NCBI GenBank assembly: GCA_913065105.1
Contig: CAJXZZ010000001.1
Span: 15,117-79,116, forward strand
Direction: 5' to 3'
Source: an uncultured Gammaproteobacteria bacterium
GTDB lineage: Bacteria > Pseudomonadota > Gammaproteobacteria > SZUA-229
DNA length: 64,000 nt
Below the pieces are notes generated by a model. The model worked only from the letters and a program-made list of their open reading frames with translations, was not told the DNA's origin and searched no databases. Numbering within the stretch: position 1 is the stretch's first letter; every line of letters starts with the position of its first letter. Shown in pieces: positions 6,884 to 58,185 of this stretch. Position numbers and translations under genes: made by a program.

Positions 6884-8005
6884 TCAGTCACAGATAACAG
6901 TATTACGGCCGGAAGCTTTGGATTTATACATGGCTAAATCTGCCTGTCTGACGATCGCATCTATATCACATATACCGCTGGTTACACCAAAACTGGCGGT
7001 AATACTAAAACTCTGATCTTCATACGAAACAACTTCGTTCTCTATCGCCTGACGTAATTCCTCTGCCAGCTGAGCCGCTACACTCAAAGGTGTTAACGGT
7101 AACAGCATACCAAATTCCTCGCCGCCAATACGCGCAAACACATCTGACTTTCTTAGTCGCTTCAGTAGGATTTGACCAATCTGTTTTAGCGCAGCGTCAC
7201 CCGCTGCATGGCCAAAACTATCATTGATGGTTTTAAAATTATCGAGATCCATGATAATCATCGCAAGCTCATCTTTATTTCGTTGACTATTGTTTGCCAG
7301 TACTTTTCCGTATTCATAGAAAGCCCGCCGATTATATAACCCAGTCAATTCATCTATACGAGCGAGTTTATCCGCCTTTACCTTGGAAATTTCGAGTTGA
7401 TGCGTCATCAGGAAATTATTGTGCATGGCGAAACCAAGAACACTGGTGGCACGTATAGTAGAAATAAAGAAACTGATTGCACCGATGGCCATTGCTGCAA
7501 AAATAAACTCTCCACTGAAGAGAAAATATATTGTTACAGGTAATAACACAGCAGCGATCGTTGCCAATGTCATTGCACGGTGTGCCGAATAAACAGAGAT
7601 TGCACCGCCTGACATGCCGATCAAGAAATAAAAGATGACTGCCTGATGCAGCGGGGAATCAGTCGGCATTATTAATACGCAGCCAAGGCCCCAGATAAGG
7701 GACGACAGCATAAGTGTTATGAAATAGGGTTTTTCCCAGGAGAGTACCTCCTGAGCTTGCGGTGCCGCTTTATAGTAACGGTTAAAGAGAAAAAGCCGCA
7801 GTGTGGAGGACACCAGGAAAAGGCTAAACCAGATGAGTAATAGTTGGTGGTCCTGCGCCGGCCATAGTATCGCCGCCAGAAGAGCAGCGTTAAACAGGCT
7901 GACAAAAATGGCCGGAAAAGACTGGCGGTAAAGTAGCTGTAATTTATCTGATTGAACCAGCACCGACAGATCCGACTCGGTATTATTTTTATCTACGATA
8001 TCCAT
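6884..8005 (-). CDS. Membrane-bound diguanylate cyclase (GGDEF)
   Basis: Multiple TM helices; DELTGLYNRR, DLDNFK, RxxD I-site (RKSD), GGEEF, ADLAMY. Confidence 0.93.
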   Translation of the reverse strand: MDIVDKNNTESDLSVLVQSDKLQLLYRQSFPAIFVSLFNAALLAAILWPAQDHQLLLIWFSLFLVSSTLRLFLFNRYYKAAPQAQEVLSWEKPYFITLMLSSLIWGLGCVLIMPTDSPLHQAVIFYFLIGMSGGAISVYSAHRAMTLATIAAVLLPVTIYFLFSGEFIFAAMAIGAISFFISTIRATSVLGFAMHNNFLMTHQLEISKVKADKLARIDELTGLYNRRAFYEYGKVLANNSQRNKDELAMIIMDLDNFKTINDSFGHAAGDAALKQIGQILLKRLRKSDVFARIGGEEFGMLLPLTPLSVAAQLAEELRQAIENEVVSYEDQSFSITASFGVTSGICDIDAIVRQADLAMYKSKASGRNTVICD

Positions 8006-8116
8006 TATCGCCGGAATTCTAACAACAAACTGGATTCATTACAGAAAAATAAATCCCCAGTTATTAAGCGTGTAGGACGACAGCATGTTTGAGATTGTAA
8101 TCGCGTAGAAATAACC

Positions 8117-8130
8117 TTGATCTGAATCAA
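8117..8130. promoter_or_regulatory. Perfect FNR/ANR/DNR-type box
   Basis: TTGATCTGAATCAA = TTGAT-N4-ATCAA, between the divergent DGC gene and a small ORF. Confidence 0.65.
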
Positions 8131-8253
8131 AATCTAGCCGATATAGCCGTTTAAAAAATGGCGCACTTGGTCATATGAAAGGCGTCAAGTGTCATTTTTG
8201 CATTTATCTTGCTCTGTACAATACGCCAATACTCAACAGGCAAGGAGGGATAA

Positions 8254-8337
8254 ATGGACATGCAAGCTAGAGATTTTGGATATTTGATTGTTGTTATACT
8301 GCTGTTCATAGCGATCAGCAGTTATATATTTTCTTGA
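8254..8337 (+). CDS. Putative 27-aa single-pass membrane peptide (not in ORF track)
   Basis: MDMQARDFGYLIVVILLFIAISSYIFS*; strong Shine-Dalgarno AAGGAGG at 8242-8248; one hydrophobic stretch. Confidence 0.55.
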   Translation: MDMQARDFGYLIVVILLFIAISSYIFS

Positions 8338-8409
8338 TGTTACCCGTGCAGAAATTTTTATTAATGACGGTTATATTGATACCGATAAGGTGTGCTGGTT
8401 AGACGTTAG

Positions 8410-8548
8410 GGTATTACTTAAATTTACAGATGAATTAAAAATGGTGCCCAGGGCCGGATTAAATTTGTCTGGAACAAATTTAGCATGAGTGTTTTCTACG
8501 AATGACCCGCAGGGTGAATTACAGGGATGTAATTCATAATCTAACCGG
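8410..8548 (-). repeat. Duplicated tRNA-Leu 3' end and trailer, with an ~80-bp element inserted in the T-loop
   Basis: 8410-8458 is a near-identical direct repeat of 8589-8637. CCGG...AATCTAACCGG is split by AAATTTGTCTGGAACAAATTT...GACCCGCAGGGTGAATTACAGGGATGTAATTCAT. Confidence 0.85.
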
Positions 8549-8620
8549 ATACCGGGTCGATTCTGCTCAGATATACCGTCAACTAACAGGTAATACTTAA
8601 ATTTACAGATAAATTAATAA

Positions 8621-8707
8621 TGGTGCCCAGGGCCGGAATCGAACCGGCACGCCCGTGAAGGCGAGGGATTTTAAGTCCCTTGCGTCTACCAATTTCGCCA
8701 CCTGGGC
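8621..8707 (-). tRNA. tRNA-Leu (anticodon TAA)
   Basis: GCCCAGGTGGCGAAATTGGTAGACGCAAGGGACTTAAAATCCCT...GGTTCGATTCCGGCCCTGGGCACCA; 87 nt, long variable arm, encoded CCA. Confidence 0.97.
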
Positions 8708-8880
8708 TAACAGAATGGTCTTTGCTACATCTAGCCGTATTTTATTGCTTAAGGTAAGTAGCGCTCTGCACTACTGTCTACCACAACGCCACCTGGGCAT
8801 ACTTCTAGATGGTCTTGCTTAGCTTTTTTAGTTGAAGCTCAACGTTCAGCGACAACACACCTGGGCTAACCGGTGGTAAT

Positions 8881-8954
8881 TGGAGGCGGGACCCGGAGTC
8901 GAACCGAGGTAGATTGATTTGCAATCAACTGCATGGCCACTTTGCTATCCCGCC
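8881..8954 (-). tRNA. tRNA-Cys (anticodon GCA)
   Basis: GGCGGGATAGCAAAGTGGCCATGCAGTTGATTGCAAATCAATCTACCTCGGTTCGACTCCGGGTCCCGCCTCCA; 74 nt, U73 discriminator. Confidence 0.96.
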
Positions 8955-9145
8955 GAATTTAAGCTACTTAGCTCGCCTGCTCTCTATTAAATGTTATGTT
9001 CAGAACGGTCCATTTACAATGTGTAAACGCCGCTTTCATCAAGATCATTTGTTCTGATCAGGCTTCGCACGTGACGCTAAGATATATTATAACAGCCTGC
9101 ATCACACATACATTTTCATTTTATACAGCAAATACGTCTGTAAAA

Positions 9146-9190
9146 ATGAAAAAACCCTGCATCTTGTTTAATTAACGCAGGGTTTTTCAT
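9146..9190 (-). terminator. Putative intrinsic terminator directly after tRNA-Gly
   Basis: Minus strand ATGAAAAACCCTGC-N-GCAGGGTTTTTTCAT stem followed by T tracts. Confidence 0.6.
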
Positions 9191-9194
9191 AATT

Positions 9195-9270
9195 TGGAGC
9201 GGGAAACGAGATTCGAACTCGCGACCTCAACCTTGGCAAGGTTGCGCTCTACCAACTGAGCTATTCCCGC
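9195..9270 (-). tRNA. tRNA-Gly (anticodon GCC)
   Basis: GCGGGAATAGCTCAGTTGGTAGAGCGCAACCTTGCCAAGGTTGAGGTCGCGAGTTCGAATCTCGTTTCCCGCTCCA; 76 nt; conserved pgsA-Gly-Cys-Leu synteny. Confidence 0.98.
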
Positions 9271-9292
9271 ATTGCTTTGAAAGCAGGCCGCT

Positions 9293-9320
9293 ATTCTAGC
9301 GATGACGGCGATACTGTCAA
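9293..9320 (-). promoter_or_regulatory. Sigma70 stable-RNA promoter of the tRNA cluster
   Basis: TTGACA-16 bp-TAGAAT followed by the GC-rich discriminator AGCGGCC. Confidence 0.8.
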
Positions 9321-9361
9321 GGTAAAATTGACCGATAACGCTTATTAATCCTGTTTTATGA

Positions 9362-9919
9362 TCAATTACTTGTTGTTAATGTGGACCACGCTGACTTTAT
9401 ATAAATTATCATCGAGACCATGGTAAGAAATGCTGCCCACACTAGTAAACCAACGCCGATAGTATATATCGGTATAGTGAAGATATCCTGATCATAAATT
9501 AAGAACAGTAAGGCGACCATTTGAGCGACTGTTTTTGCTTTGCCAGATAATGATACCGCAACATCTTTGCTTTTACCCAGGGCCGACATCCATTCACGCA
9601 GTGATGAGATAAATATTTCTCGTGAAACGATGATTAATGTCGAAAATAATAACCAGTTGTTTTCTGGATGCCTGGTCAATATTAGTAATAGTGCTGATAT
9701 CACCATGAGTTTATCGGCTAACGGGTCGATGAAAGCCCCTAATGATGTTTGCTGGTTTAATTTGCGAGCCAGGTAACCGTCAACCCAGTCGGTAATGGCT
9801 GCAAAACCGAAGATGAAGGTGGCTAATGCCGGTGCCCATGAATATGGCAGATAGAAAACGGCTATAAATACGGGGATTAAAACGATACGGGTTGTTGTTA
9901 CTGTGTTTGGTATATTCAT
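9362..9919 (-). CDS. pgsA: CDP-diacylglycerol--glycerol-3-phosphate 3-phosphatidyltransferase
   Basis: NIPN..T..RI, DWVDGYLAR, GAFIDPLADK, REI.IS.LRE, GKAKT..QM; synteny with uvrC. Confidence 0.96.
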   Translation of the reverse strand: MNIPNTVTTTRIVLIPVFIAVFYLPYSWAPALATFIFGFAAITDWVDGYLARKLNQQTSLGAFIDPLADKLMVISALLLILTRHPENNWLLFSTLIIVSREIFISSLREWMSALGKSKDVAVSLSGKAKTVAQMVALLFLIYDQDIFTIPIYTIGVGLLVWAAFLTMVSMIIYIKSAWSTLTTSN

Positions 9920-56101: not shown

Positions 56102-56463
56102 GGGGATGACATGGCTTCGACGTGGGTAATGAAACCTGAGGTGCATGCAGAGGTGTGAAATTCCTCTTAAAACCGTTCACAAAACTTATAGTTGCCAACG
56201 ACGACAACTACGCTTTAGCAGCTTAAACCCCTGCTCATAGCCCTCGGCCTAATGTGCGCTTACACGCTTAGATAACCGGGGTCGACTCATGTAAGATCGC
56301 GATGAAGCTTCTTCCTGGGTGGATTCGTTAAAACTTACAGGAATCGCTCTGTATTTTCCCTGTTCGTCGGGTAATACAAAGTTAAACTAATAGACGGAAT
56401 AAGCATGTAGAGCCGATGGCGGAGTGCTTGCGGACGTGGGTTCGATTCCCACCATCTCCACCA
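56102..56463 (+). ncRNA. ssrA: tmRNA (one-piece), tag peptide ANDDNYALAA
   Basis: 5' GGGGATG pairs with 3' CATCTCC-ACCA and has the G3:U pair; T-arm GTGGGTTCGATTCCCAC; tag frame GCCAACGACGACAACTACGCTTTAGCAGCTTAA at 56194-56226. Confidence 0.97.
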
Positions 56464-56533: not shown

Positions 56534-56730
56534 CGGGTTCAAAAAATTGTCTGGAACAATTTTTAACGTGTGCTTTTTACACGGCCCCGAAGGCACCTAC
56601 ATGGATATAGGATGGTAGAGCAACGCATATGTACAGGAAGTACGGTATTAGGGTAACGCAGGACGCAGTTACCGAGGAGAAATTGCCGAGGTGAGTCTCA
56701 TGGATGAGGCGAATACTTCCCGCCATCTCC
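56534..56730 (+). repeat. Duplicated tmRNA 3' end with a three-level nested insertion in its T-loop
   Basis: CGGGTTC (56534-40) and TTCCCGCCATCTCC (56717-30) mimic GTGGGTTCGATTCCCACCATCTCC. Between them lies the same AAATTGTCTGGAACAATTT element as at 8461, itself interrupted by two further modules. Confidence 0.85.
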
Positions 56731-58185
56731 TCATTTAACGCCGTCAAATTTTTCCTTGCCAAAGTGTTCAAGTAATAAACCATCATAATTCCTTATTCGT
56801 GTCACATAGCGTACCGGCTCATTTCCGCGCGCATAACCATAACGTAGGTCTTTATAATATTTTTTCTGACTTAACAATGGCAATATCTCTTTCATTTCTG
56901 CCCAATGGTCAGGGTTTTTATTCATCTTTCTAGCCAAAGATTGCGCGTCACGGAAATGGCCGCGGCCAACATTGTATGCCGCCAAAGCAAGCCAGCTACG
57001 ATCTGGTTCGCTTACCTCTGCCACCATTTTTTTCATCTTTGCCTGAAATTTTGCACCCGCATAAATATTTTGTTTAGCATCCAGTCGATTAGTCACGCCC
57101 AGTGATTTCGCTACCGGTTGTGTCAGCATCATAATGCCGCGCACTCCTGTCGGGCTTTTTGCTTTAGTGTTCCAATGTGATTCCTGATAACTTTGAGCAG
57201 CAAGTAAAGAAGGTTCAATGCTATTTTTATTTGCAGCATCAATAAAAAAATCTTTATATTTAGGTAAGCGCGTTGTTACTCTTGATAAGAATTTGTGTGT
57301 ATCCACATAATCAAAAACCTCGACGTAACCATAATATTTTTCTAACATACGTGCTAGACCATAATCTTCTTCATAGTGATCAAACCAGTCATTAATGGCC
57401 TGTTTCAGCTTGCCATTTTGCTTATTTATCATCCATGCCAGTTCAGTGTCTTCAGCAAAAACGTATTTATTTTGTATCTCGGTATGGTATCGGCGCTCTA
57501 TCGCGTACAAAGTAGAATCGCTAATAGTGCATTCAATTTTTTTATCCGCGACCTGCTCCAACAGATCTGAAGTGCTACTATTGTTATCTTCTGTCCACGA
57601 TACACCCGCGTAGGATTTTATTGACTGGATATAACTGCTATCGGCAGTAACTATAATCTCGAGAGTTTTTAATTCTTCTTTAGTTTTTACGCTTTTTTTA
57701 CTTCGGTGGCAGACCAGATACTCATTCGTGGTTTGGTAGACCGGCCCAAAATCGAATTCTTTTTTTCGATTATCATTAACAGTTAGACTTGCTGCAGCGA
57801 TATCGCCTTCATTATTACGTAACGCTTCTATTAGTGCTTTAGTTGAATCATAAACTTTATATTCAACATCAACCTGTAGCCTTTTTGCAAATGATTGCAT
57901 CATATCGTACTCAGGTCCGGTTATTTCATTATCACGATTGTAATAATAAGTAGTCGGTGAATTTGTGGTTAAAACGATCAACTTACCACGCTGCACAATT
58001 TTTTCTAAGAGCGCAGATGCTAGTAAATTATCACGGCTTTCCTGAATACCAGAATTAGGCAGGATGGTTGAAATGACTGATTTCTCATCGACTTGATCGC
58101 ACGCATTTATCAATAGCGTCATCACAAACAATAATATTATTTGTCTGCTTTTGCTACAGAATACTTTATGAGTAATAGAAACCAA
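56731..58185 (-). CDS. mltF: Membrane-bound lytic murein transglycosylase F
   Basis: SBP-like N-domain (RG.L.V.T.NSPTTYY, G.EYD); SLT domain LAA.SYQESHW, SPTGVRG.MMLT, ALAAYNVG.GH, YGYARG.EPV.YV. Confidence 0.93.
   Translation of the reverse strand: MVSITHKVFCSKSRQIILLFVMTLLINACDQVDEKSVISTILPNSGIQESRDNLLASALLEKIVQRGKLIVLTTNSPTTYYYNRDNEITGPEYDMMQSFAKRLQVDVEYKVYDSTKALIEALRNNEGDIAAASLTVNDNRKKEFDFGPVYQTTNEYLVCHRSKKSVKTKEELKTLEIIVTADSSYIQSIKSYAGVSWTEDNNSSTSDLLEQVADKKIECTISDSTLYAIERRYHTEIQNKYVFAEDTELAWMINKQNGKLKQAINDWFDHYEEDYGLARMLEKYYGYVEVFDYVDTHKFLSRVTTRLPKYKDFFIDAANKNSIEPSLLAAQSYQESHWNTKAKSPTGVRGIMMLTQPVAKSLGVTNRLDAKQNIYAGAKFQAKMKKMVAEVSEPDRSWLALAAYNVGRGHFRDAQSLARKMNKNPDHWAEMKEILPLLSQKKYYKDLRYGYARGNEPVRYVTRIRNYDGLLLEHFGKEKFDGVK

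Follow-up and report, generated by a model that had tools for sequence, protein, structure and literature searches.

A TLR/RtT-type repeat unit with a reversed hairpin core behind tRNA-Leu(UAA) in an uncultured gammaproteobacterium

The tRNA-Leu(UAA) locus and the make-up of its 179-bp unit

The DNA analysed here (the window) is a stretch of 64,000 nt from the genome of an uncultured gammaproteobacterium (assembly GCA_913065105.1, contig CAJXZZ010000001.1, positions 15,117 to 79,116), and the element under study is a hairpin module of about 80 nt, hereafter the core, lying within a 179-bp unit behind the gene for tRNA-Leu(UAA). This gene is the last of a Gly-Cys-Leu operon on the minus strand, with a promoter-like site at 9320-9293 and with pgsA and uvrC upstream, an order that matches the uvrC-pgsA-glyW-cysT-leuZ locus of Escherichia coli. 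Judged by its sequence, the Leu element is a member of the known family of tRNA-linked repeats (TLRs, RtT in Rfam) and no new system; the unit is unusual among TLRs only because its hairpin core lies reversed.

The unit as a whole spans positions 8441-8620, immediately 3' of the tRNA-Leu gene, and no terminator is predicted between the two. The T-arm of the gene reads GCCGG TTCGATT CCGGC. A single direct-repeat family is present in 8300-8760, with copies of 49 nt at 8410-8458 and 8589-8637 (94 % identity, spacing 179), each consisting of 17 nt of tRNA-Leu 3' end and 32 nt of trailer; a first-pass annotation of the window, made from its letters alone, had reported just such a duplication of about 50 bp at a distance of 179 bp. 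The single inverted pair in the same interval links 8552-8563 with 8636-8647. Followed in the direction of the tRNA, the intact gene gives way to a 32-nt trailer, a 26-nt spacer, an 11-bp hairpin, the core of about 80 nt and then the 3' half of a T-stem, an acceptor 3' strand, CCA and the second trailer copy. The 11-bp hairpin arises from pairing of the inverted T-arm copy with the adjoining pseudo T-arm half, and the same hairpin occurs in relatives (loci L002, L003, L004 and L006). In the displaced 3' end, the complement of the tRNA-Leu 3' end, TGGTGCCCAGGGCCGGA, is matched at 17/17 positions, the next position being A in the copy versus T in the gene. The sequence thus confirms that an element of some 80 bp, at 8461-8540 on the plus strand, splits the T-arm of the duplicated 3' end, as the first-pass annotation had it, with coordinates that were right. 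Trailer similarity to the proximal copy stops at 8409, and the distal trailer is probably the native one. Neither integrase nor cargo lies in the unit (open reading frames in 8005-9362 are at most 59 aa long, none of them integrase-sized), and no integrase was found within several kb of it.

The Leu core consists of four hairpins, namely H1 (AAATTTG-TCTGGAA-CAAATTT), a variable H2, H3 (CCC-GCA-GGG) and H4 (GAATTAC-AGGGAT-GTAATTC), followed by the tail ATAAT, and there is a GGA in the loops of both H1 and H4. A covariance model, R1, was made from 13 aligned core copies from this genome and five relatives, the copy at the tmRNA gene being left out. Of the alignment cells in the four hairpins, 90.5 % are paired, compared with 29-45 % once the 3' partners have been shifted by 1-3 columns. 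Both sides have changed in 14 of 22 pairs, a level of covariation reached by 0/500 shuffles, and over 44 distinct core copies the stems contain 875 Watson-Crick cells, 16 G-T and 7 A-C. The four core helices are under selection. Covariation of the end stems (GAATTAC/GTAATTC and CTC/GAG, both around CA.GGATG) had been noticed in the first-pass annotation, and these stems are helix 4 of R1. Conservation is highest at the GGA of the helix 1 loop and at the CA.GGA.G of the helix 4 loop, and the two ends of the core, ACT plus H1 and H4 plus RTAAT, are not inverted repeats of each other. Coordinates of the features at the Leu locus and at the tmRNA gene (ssrA) are collected in Table 1.

Table 1. Features of the tRNA-Leu(UAA) and ssrA loci, in window positions
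Feature	Position	Strand	Basis
Distal trailer copy	8410-8441	(-)	Direct repeat; downstream comparison
Displaced pseudo 3' end of tRNA-Leu (T-stem 3' half, acceptor 3' strand, CCA)	8442-8458	(-)	Sequence, repeat
TLR core, about 80 nt, four hairpins, antisense to the tRNA operon	8458-8540	(+)	Model R1, 85.7 bits; covariation; fold
Pseudo T-stem 5' half and T-loop; + strand AATCTAACCGG vs AATCGAACCGG in the real gene	8538-8548	(-)	Sequence, flank tables
Unit spacer with inverted T-arm 5' half and loop (8552-8563)	8549-8588	(-)	Inverted pair
Proximal trailer, 32 nt, inside the repeat unit	8589-8620	(-)	Direct repeat copy 8589-8637
Intact tRNA-Leu(UAA)	8621-8707	(-)	ARAGORN; Rfam tRNA, 60.8 bits
tRNA-Cys and tRNA-Gly, operon mates of tRNA-Leu	8881-9270	(-)	ARAGORN, gene context
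tmRNA gene	56102-56463	(+)	ARAGORN, Rfam
Sister TLR core at ssrA, long form with inner module, sense to tmRNA	56543-56715	(+)	R1, 45.2 bits over 56543-56619; sequence
Displaced pseudo 3' end of tmRNA, CTTCCCGCCATCTCCTCA vs ATTCCCACCATCTCCACCA in the gene	56716-56733	(+)	Sequence

Family membership and distribution of the core

The TLR family has been known since 1978, with 22 TLRs at ten loci of E. coli K-12 and a definition that calls for 18-19 bp of identity with the 3' terminus of the preceding tRNA or rRNA gene (PMC8144298). RrA, RrB and RrF arise by processing of rrn transcripts, and in vitro these RNAs bind both Hfq and CsrA (PMC8144298). That article states that no function of TLRs is known, does not go into their origin and nowhere uses the word 'mobile'.

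Application of R1, whose training copies all come from this genus, to E. coli K-12 gave 63.8 bits at each of the 3' flanks of rrnD, rrnA and rrnB, 29.8 bits at proK, 18-21 bits at three tyrV units and the tyrT-tyrV spacer and 20-21 bits for the tyrT units, and all five E. coli hits are sense. At rrnB the layout is 5S gene, terminator T1, ..CTGAGTAGG, core, AACTGCCAGGCATCAAAT (which repeats the 5S 3' end) and T2. The tyrV/tyrT repeats and the proK unit have their parts in the order 3' end, trailer, GGATGAGAA., GGTTCGACT, hairpins, CCCGAAGGG, hairpin, GAGT|AATCC, and the motifs GGATGAGAA., GGTTCGACT, CCCG.AGGG and GAGT|AATCC are common to the E. coli tyrV and proK units and the units described here. 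The R1 matches and the shared order of parts place the core in the TLR/RtT family. The Rfam model RtT (RF00391, cut-off 45 bits) aligns end to end with the Val (42.2 bits), Ser (27.3 bits) and Asp (19.8 bits) units of this genome; at gathering score, a search of the whole window with Rfam gave nothing at the Leu and ssrA loci beyond tRNA and tmRNA, and RtT had no match anywhere in the window. The Leu unit resembles a TLR in its position directly after a tRNA, its 3'-end identity of 17/17 and the homology of its core to E. coli TLRs. It departs from one in that the core is on the plus strand and the tRNA on the minus strand, so that the two do not share an orientation, and it does not attain the score of at least 45 bits that defines RF00391.

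The core at ssrA is flanked by GGGTTC on its left and CTTCCCGCCATCTCCTCA on its right. Although this copy was withheld from R1, the model scores it at 45.2 bits (genome-wide E = 4.3e-6), so the likeness of the Leu and tmRNA copies withstood the structure-aware comparison that the first-pass annotation had named as its own refutation test; the strands likewise bear out its statement that the element is antisense at tRNA-Leu and sense at ssrA. Long forms of the core, at ssrA (56600-56700) and at tRNA-Phe (contig C98, 3250-3300), have an inner module, ..GGTAGAGCAACGCAGGAGCAGTTGCCGA.., between two CA.GGATG hairpins, and this module recurs in inverted form at C16:39950-40010.

The genome analysed here (G000), with 45 tRNA/tmRNA genes, contains 23 matches to R1 at E <= 0.001. 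Twelve lie at most 200 nt from a tRNA or tmRNA gene, in stretches that together amount to about 1 % of the genome (binomial P ~1e-18). Ten copies are downstream of a resident gene, each adjoining a copy of that gene's 3' end; those at Gln-ctg, Val-gac, Ser-gct, Asp (two tandem units), Pro-ggg and tmRNA are sense, and those at Leu-taa, Leu-caa and Phe are antisense. Two copies are upstream of tRNA-Ser genes, and the one at Ser-gct is preceded by a duplicate of the tRNA's initial 22 nt that breaks off in the D-loop. One further core interrupts a tRNA-Met fragment at its T-loop, whereas two paralogues of this fragment are uninterrupted, and ten lie away from any tRNA, most of them within another repeat. 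By BLAST, extra tRNA 3'-end copies of at least 16 nt all adjoin a core, the exceptions being a tRNA-Met fragment on contig C68 and one gene cut by a contig end. The proposal that the element sits, in both orientations, in T-loops of displaced 3' copies of different tRNA-like genes holds, but a restriction to T-loops does not, given that the E. coli core splits a duplicated 5S rRNA 3' end, that one core lies at a D-loop and that 10/23 copies are off tRNAs.

Several of these sites have features of their own. The D-loop case (G000:C37:18107-18203) is a mirror-image, '5'-type' TLR in which about 22 nt of the tRNA-Ser 5' end, up to the D-loop, is copied upstream and followed by the core; the type forms an array of three units with period 179 in G012 (L098, G012:C64:42650-43642) and occurs in another family of the class (L032, 1575-1651). 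The tRNA-Met 3' region is present three times, as a full gene, an internal-deletion copy and a core-split copy (C23:1-400, C68:5930-6250 and C95:4400-4720), each followed by about 250 nt of conserved sequence that is possibly an island end or a structured RNA. A second split tRNA fragment besides that of tRNA-Met on C95 was seen in G004 (L030, G004:C6:57900-58100), where a core occupies the T-loop of a larger tRNA-Leu fragment, extending from the anticodon loop to part of the acceptor and distant from the resident gene. At C7:32400-32650, C98:7530-7700, C23:36960-37130, C3:63550-63720 and C92:10990-11110, cores without a neighbouring tRNA lie inside another repeat that has a hairpin of its own (..GAGTCACTCTTTTG..CAAAAGAGTAACCAGACT, directly followed by the core), and the composite recurs in many genomes of the genus.

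Matches to R1 were found in 34/34 genomes of the genus (1 to 91 copies), in 97/97 genomes of the order (one family, 19 genera) and in 66/151 genomes of the class, sampled at one per family (65/150 without the unpublished genome G135). Automatic labelling of the flanks called 71 of 88 further hits 'not tRNA-linked', which is an undercount with loci of about 1 kb, and the fraction is not used; by eye, at least L048, L053, L079 (two hits) and L092 were misclassified and are Leu antisense units. In several genomes of this order, tandem TLR arrays repeat every 174-182 bp, and in E. coli tyrT every 178 bp, so that the unit length stays within this range despite unrelated trailers. At tRNA-Leu(UAA) the number of units varies between relatives, from none (G015) to one (G013, G017), two (G024) and two plus a partial unit (G010), all of them antisense. 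In one of these loci (L006, G017:C114:1-340) the acceptor of the resident tRNA-Leu is GCCTGGG/CCCAGGC, whereas the displaced end of the TLR has the CCTGGGC typical of the genus, and the 51-nt trailers are identical; here the gene, not the TLR copy, seems to have been replaced.

Proposed core insertion, the AAT rule and competing explanations

The second Leu unit of G024 contains two extra cores nested in the host core. One is a clean insertion of 79 nt (ACT + H1 ... GACGAAT), in reverse, between CAAATTT and AGCATG and with no duplication; the other occupies the helix 3 loop of the host core, from which three host letters are missing, and the same composite is found at Leu-caa in G000. When the unit from ACT to the letter before AAT is excised from TLRs, GGTTCG^AATCC is restored at Val, Ser, Asp, E. 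coli Tyr and proK, and GTTCA^AATCC at Gln, the real Gln loop being TTCAAAT. On the bottom strand, excision gives CCGG^AATCTAACCGG at Leu and CCTGG^AATTTAACCAG at Phe, each equal to the real bottom-strand T-arm with one G-to-T change. Because excision restores the cognate T-arm, the left flank of the core belongs to the T-loop and not to the element.

The trinucleotide AAT always follows the core. The 12-13 species with cores whose T-loop ends in ..AAT have sense cores (Asp, Ser-gct, Pro-ggg, Val-gac, Gln-ctg, Gln-ttg, Pro-tgg, Tyr, Ser-tga, Ser-gga, Arg-acg, Ser-cga and E. coli Pro-cgg) and none has an antisense core; among ..ATT loops, Leu-taa, Leu-caa and Phe have antisense cores and tmRNA a sense core. 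Counted by tRNA species, AAT loops are 12 sense/0 antisense and ATT loops 1 sense/3 antisense (Fisher P = 0.007), and in G000 TLRs occur at 5/22 ..AAT genes (all sense), 4/6 ..ATT genes (three antisense, one sense) and 0/17 others (Fisher P = 0.0086), figures weakened by the fact that neither tRNA species nor genomes are independent samples. The quasi-symmetry of the T-loop, which the first-pass annotation had pointed to, appears to set the orientation of the core. The Leu loop, TTCGATT, reads AAT on the bottom strand and the Leu core would be antisense for that reason, the AAT strand setting orientation. The reversed Leu core suggests that the core once entered a tRNA T-loop as a small mobile DNA.

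Our explanation of the locus, to which we give a probability of roughly 70 % as a whole, is that the 179-bp Leu unit is a TLR unit with a core inserted at AAT, whose RNA is of the CsrA-binding type and whose arrays recombine. The architecture of the unit, the homology of its core to E. coli TLRs, the selection on its helices and the two near-invariant GGA loops are established by the data above. Beyond these, the core would be, or would have been, a discrete DNA of about 79 nt (ACT + AAAWTYG ... RTAAT) that joined the T-loop of a spare tRNA 3' copy at the trinucleotide AAT. Sense copies would be released from the tRNA or rRNA transcript, with the duplicated 3' end as a processing signal, and by analogy with E. 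coli RrB in vitro would bind CsrA and Hfq. The transcript of the Leu operon is the complement of the core and so would be no CsrA ligand unless the plus strand were transcribed, and the Leu copy may be a neutral passenger or an antisense partner of sense-core RNAs. Array size would change through unequal recombination between 3'-end copies. In this connection, the arrays of G010 and of E. coli proK end in a partial unit that stops exactly at the core start; as a conjecture, such end units would be expected if a core in the gene's T-loop had exchanged unequally with one at a downstream T-arm-like site.

A number of observations weigh against this explanation, in addition to the dependence among samples mentioned above. 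At tmRNA the loop is TTCGATT, yet the TLR is sense. Away from tRNAs, too, the core ends in RTAAY, so AAT may be shared with the target, which leaves the junction uncertain by 3 nt. The split copy is invariably accompanied by an intact gene, where simple insertion would have destroyed the gene, and every unit has an inverted copy of the cognate T-arm or acceptor before the split T-arm; simple insertion explains neither. (Without the core, the inverted copy and the split T-arm would form a perfect hairpin.) Folding predictions for the two strands of the core are about equal (-19.9 vs -19.8 kcal/mol) and so cannot tell which strand of the Leu copy matters. The Rfam RtT model gave no match, even at E <= 10, on either the Leu unit (8350-8720) or the tmRNA unit, the latter yielding in the same search AaHKsRNA22 at 14 bits (E = 2.7, not significant). 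Finally, no mobilizing enzyme was found; the first-pass annotation was right about the quasi-symmetry of the T-loop, and the active targeting it spoke of goes further than these data.

The strongest competitor, which we nevertheless regard as fairly unlikely, is a static functional RNA, in which the cores are old, vertically inherited small RNA (sRNA) modules of stable-RNA operons, the 3' end was duplicated locally and serves as a processing signal, and the Leu and Phe cores are local inversions that have been tolerated. Old vertical inheritance would fit the recurrence of TLRs at the same tRNAs (Ser-gct, Ser-gga and Gln-ctg) in distant families of the class, which counts against insertion. 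The three 18-nt 3'-end copies of G024 are identical though their trailers have diverged, as selection predicts, and processing of E. coli RrB leaves a 3' end that maps 3 nt beyond the repeat (PMC8144298). However, this account leaves unexplained the clean insertions of core into core, the core in the T-loop of a tRNA-Met fragment with uninterrupted paralogues, the roughly 10/23 copies off tRNAs and the lack of a TLR at 17/17 genes without AAT on either T-loop strand.

Still less probable, in our estimation, is a derivative of the IS200/IS605 or REP/RAYT type, with end hairpins read by a Y1 HUH transposase and insertion into single-stranded loops of highly transcribed genes. The core has the form expected of one, having no terminal inverted repeats or target duplication, unlike hairpins at its two ends and insertion next to a short fixed target, and several of its sites are hairpin loops (T-loop, D-loop and the loop of core helix 3). 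Against this, the sole Y1_Tnp of G000 (C56:237-530, minus strand) is a truncated pseudogene with an in-frame TAG, and among the 151 class genomes a hand count gave 44 with both, 22 with the core only, 46 with Y1 only and 39 with neither, which is no tight association; the absence of Y1_Tnp from 22/66 core-positive genomes also counts against an insertion account that would look to a cognate Y1 enzyme. The stem of helix 4, moreover, is unconserved in sequence, unlike a transposon end recognized by protein.

Integrases acting at tRNA and tmRNA genes classically leave direct repeats of a tRNA 3' end around foreign DNA, and the layout resembles this, but remnants of an island in the T-loop of tRNA-Leu or ssrA that lost its cargo (attL and attR 179 bp apart, the element being an attP arm) are very improbable and we exclude them because the core is conserved, has two orientations and is present at 5S rRNA. 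It covaries and is found in 97/97 genomes of the order, in arrays of period 174-182 and nested within itself; it splits the T-loop copy internally, where attR would keep an uninterrupted core; and, although three tyrosine recombinases are encoded in the genome, in addition to two proteins presumed to be XerC/XerD-like (assigned by score only), all five PF00589 matches are on other contigs, and no island bounded by a core on one side and an integrase on the other was seen at 12 Leu loci. The first-pass annotation, which had spoken of an att-like outcome without integrase or cargo, was correct about what is absent.

Some narrower candidates were rejected. The core is no classical miniature inverted-repeat transposable element, its ends not being inverted repeats and its nested insertion being clean and without duplication. 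An integron-type site, considered from the sequence and with no search for IntI, was dropped, the motif GTTAGAT (which fits GTTRRRY) being a mutated T-loop. A long target duplication from staggered nicks is contradicted by the left flank of the core, which is the 5' half of the cognate T-loop (GTTCA at Gln, GTTCG at the others) and not the end of the trailer. Inversion between inverted T-arm copies, converting a sense to a Leu form, predicts a left flank that was not observed, and target-primed copying of the operon transcript could extend an array but, by reasoning only, could not found a TLR at a new tRNA.

We also entertain a bolder version of the insertion reading, though on balance it is unlikely: TLR cores would be class-wide miniature DNA elements that home to a hairpin-loop AAT in stable-RNA genes (T-loop on either strand, D-loop, 5S rRNA 3' region) and create the 3'-end duplications, while the complement of the core at Leu and Phe would act as an antisense sponge linking the output of a tRNA operon to CsrA control.

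The core as a putative CsrA-type RNA and its relation to known systems

The consensus selected for CsrA by systematic evolution of ligands by exponential enrichment (SELEX) is RUACARGGAUGU; its ACA and GGA do not vary, and a hairpin loop holds the GGA (PMC4347634). On the plus strand, helix 4 of the Leu copy is UUACAGGGAUGU and matches 11/12 positions of this consensus. Among 123 distinct copies, GGA is present in the H1 loop region of 106 and in the H4 region of 118, and ACA.GGA.G in H4 of 68; the core thus has the sequence features of a CsrA decoy, namely GGA in at least two hairpin loops, ideally as ACA.GGA.G. The orientation of R1 is that in which E. coli rrB is transcribed, and the excess of G-T (16) over A-C (7) in the stems leans weakly towards the same strand. 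Since the Leu core is antisense, the operon transcript would carry the complement (UCC loops) of the CsrA sites; that it acts as a sponge is speculation, by analogy.

Two csrA genes are present in G000, one of which (92 bits to PF02599; G000:C37:17821-18675, loci L041/L015) ends 150 nt before a TLR core, followed by tRNA-Ser(gct), a second TLR and tRNA-Arg(acg), so that predicted CsrA-type GGA-loop RNAs flank the tRNA right after csrA. Public RNA runs matching the region number 24, each at <=0.20 of sampled words and to contigs only. On the plus strand near the Leu unit, one promoter-like match was found, a weak one (9/12, at 8255-8284). An open reading frame of 27 codons (8254-8337, plus strand), with a good ribosome-binding site and a hydrophobic product, faces the core and converges on the tRNA operon, and read-through of it would place a sense core in its 3' untranslated region.

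TLRs are among the earliest sequenced bacterial repeats, and they now raise a testable question, namely whether a structured module can colonize stable-RNA genes without destroying them. The basis for asking it is a shared core of about 80 nt that extends from this order to the rrn terminators of E. coli, a near-consensus CsrA site and an orientation that tracks AAT. The rrnB T1-T2 stretch, which is commonly used as a terminator cassette in cloning vectors, contains the core. For the Leu unit itself the outcome is mostly deflationary, a known family with a reversed core. In the literature searched, which did not extend to key older papers (1978-1999), TLR cores are nowhere treated as mobile and no reversed cores are reported; within that scope, and as far as the searches show, neither the reversed core nor the AAT-strand rule nor the nesting of cores appears to have been published.

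Among known systems, the Leu unit is closest to TLR/RtT repeats, which it resembles in lying directly after a tRNA in the same operon, in its length (179 bp, against 178 for tyrT), in ending with 17-19 nt of tRNA 3' end, in having a T-arm-like motif before a CCCG.AGGG hairpin core and in forming tandem arrays; it differs from RtT in that the core is reversed and the closing helix of the RtT model, between the inverted copy and the pseudo 3' end, is absent. With rrA, rrB and rrF, between T1 and T2 of rrnA, rrnB and rrnD, it shares the four-hairpin core, the GGA loops and the split 3'-end flanks, but there the host is 5S rRNA, the core is sense and the RNA and its binding of Hfq and CsrA are experimental, whereas the Leu unit is known from sequence. 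An integrase att site likewise has an intact gene followed by a displaced 3'-end copy, with the T-loop as break point; the Leu unit, by contrast, has no integrase or cargo, its displaced copy is interrupted and the intervening DNA is a conserved structured module.

REPINs with their RAYT transposases, IS200/IS605 miniatures and IS1397, which inserts into the loops of REP palindromes, are similarly small, structured and multi-copy, prefer hairpin loops and have no terminal inverted repeats or target duplications. For the core, in contrast, the search turned up no cognate transposase, and the element does not co-occur with Y1_Tnp. CsrB, CsrC, RsmY and RsmZ have in common with the core the GGA motifs in hairpin loops, helix 4 being near the SELEX consensus, yet the core has two sites where they have many, has no known promoter of its own and, in the Leu copy, has its GGA strand opposite to the operon transcript. 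A parallel in position is 3'ETS-leuZ of E. coli, a sponge for sRNAs that is excised from glyW-cysT-leuZ RNA (cited in PMC8144298). Its place is that of the Leu unit, the trailer of a Gly-Cys-Leu operon by pgsA and uvrC, and, with a likeness drawn here from position, it provides a precedent for a trailer-derived RNA that pairs with other sRNAs.

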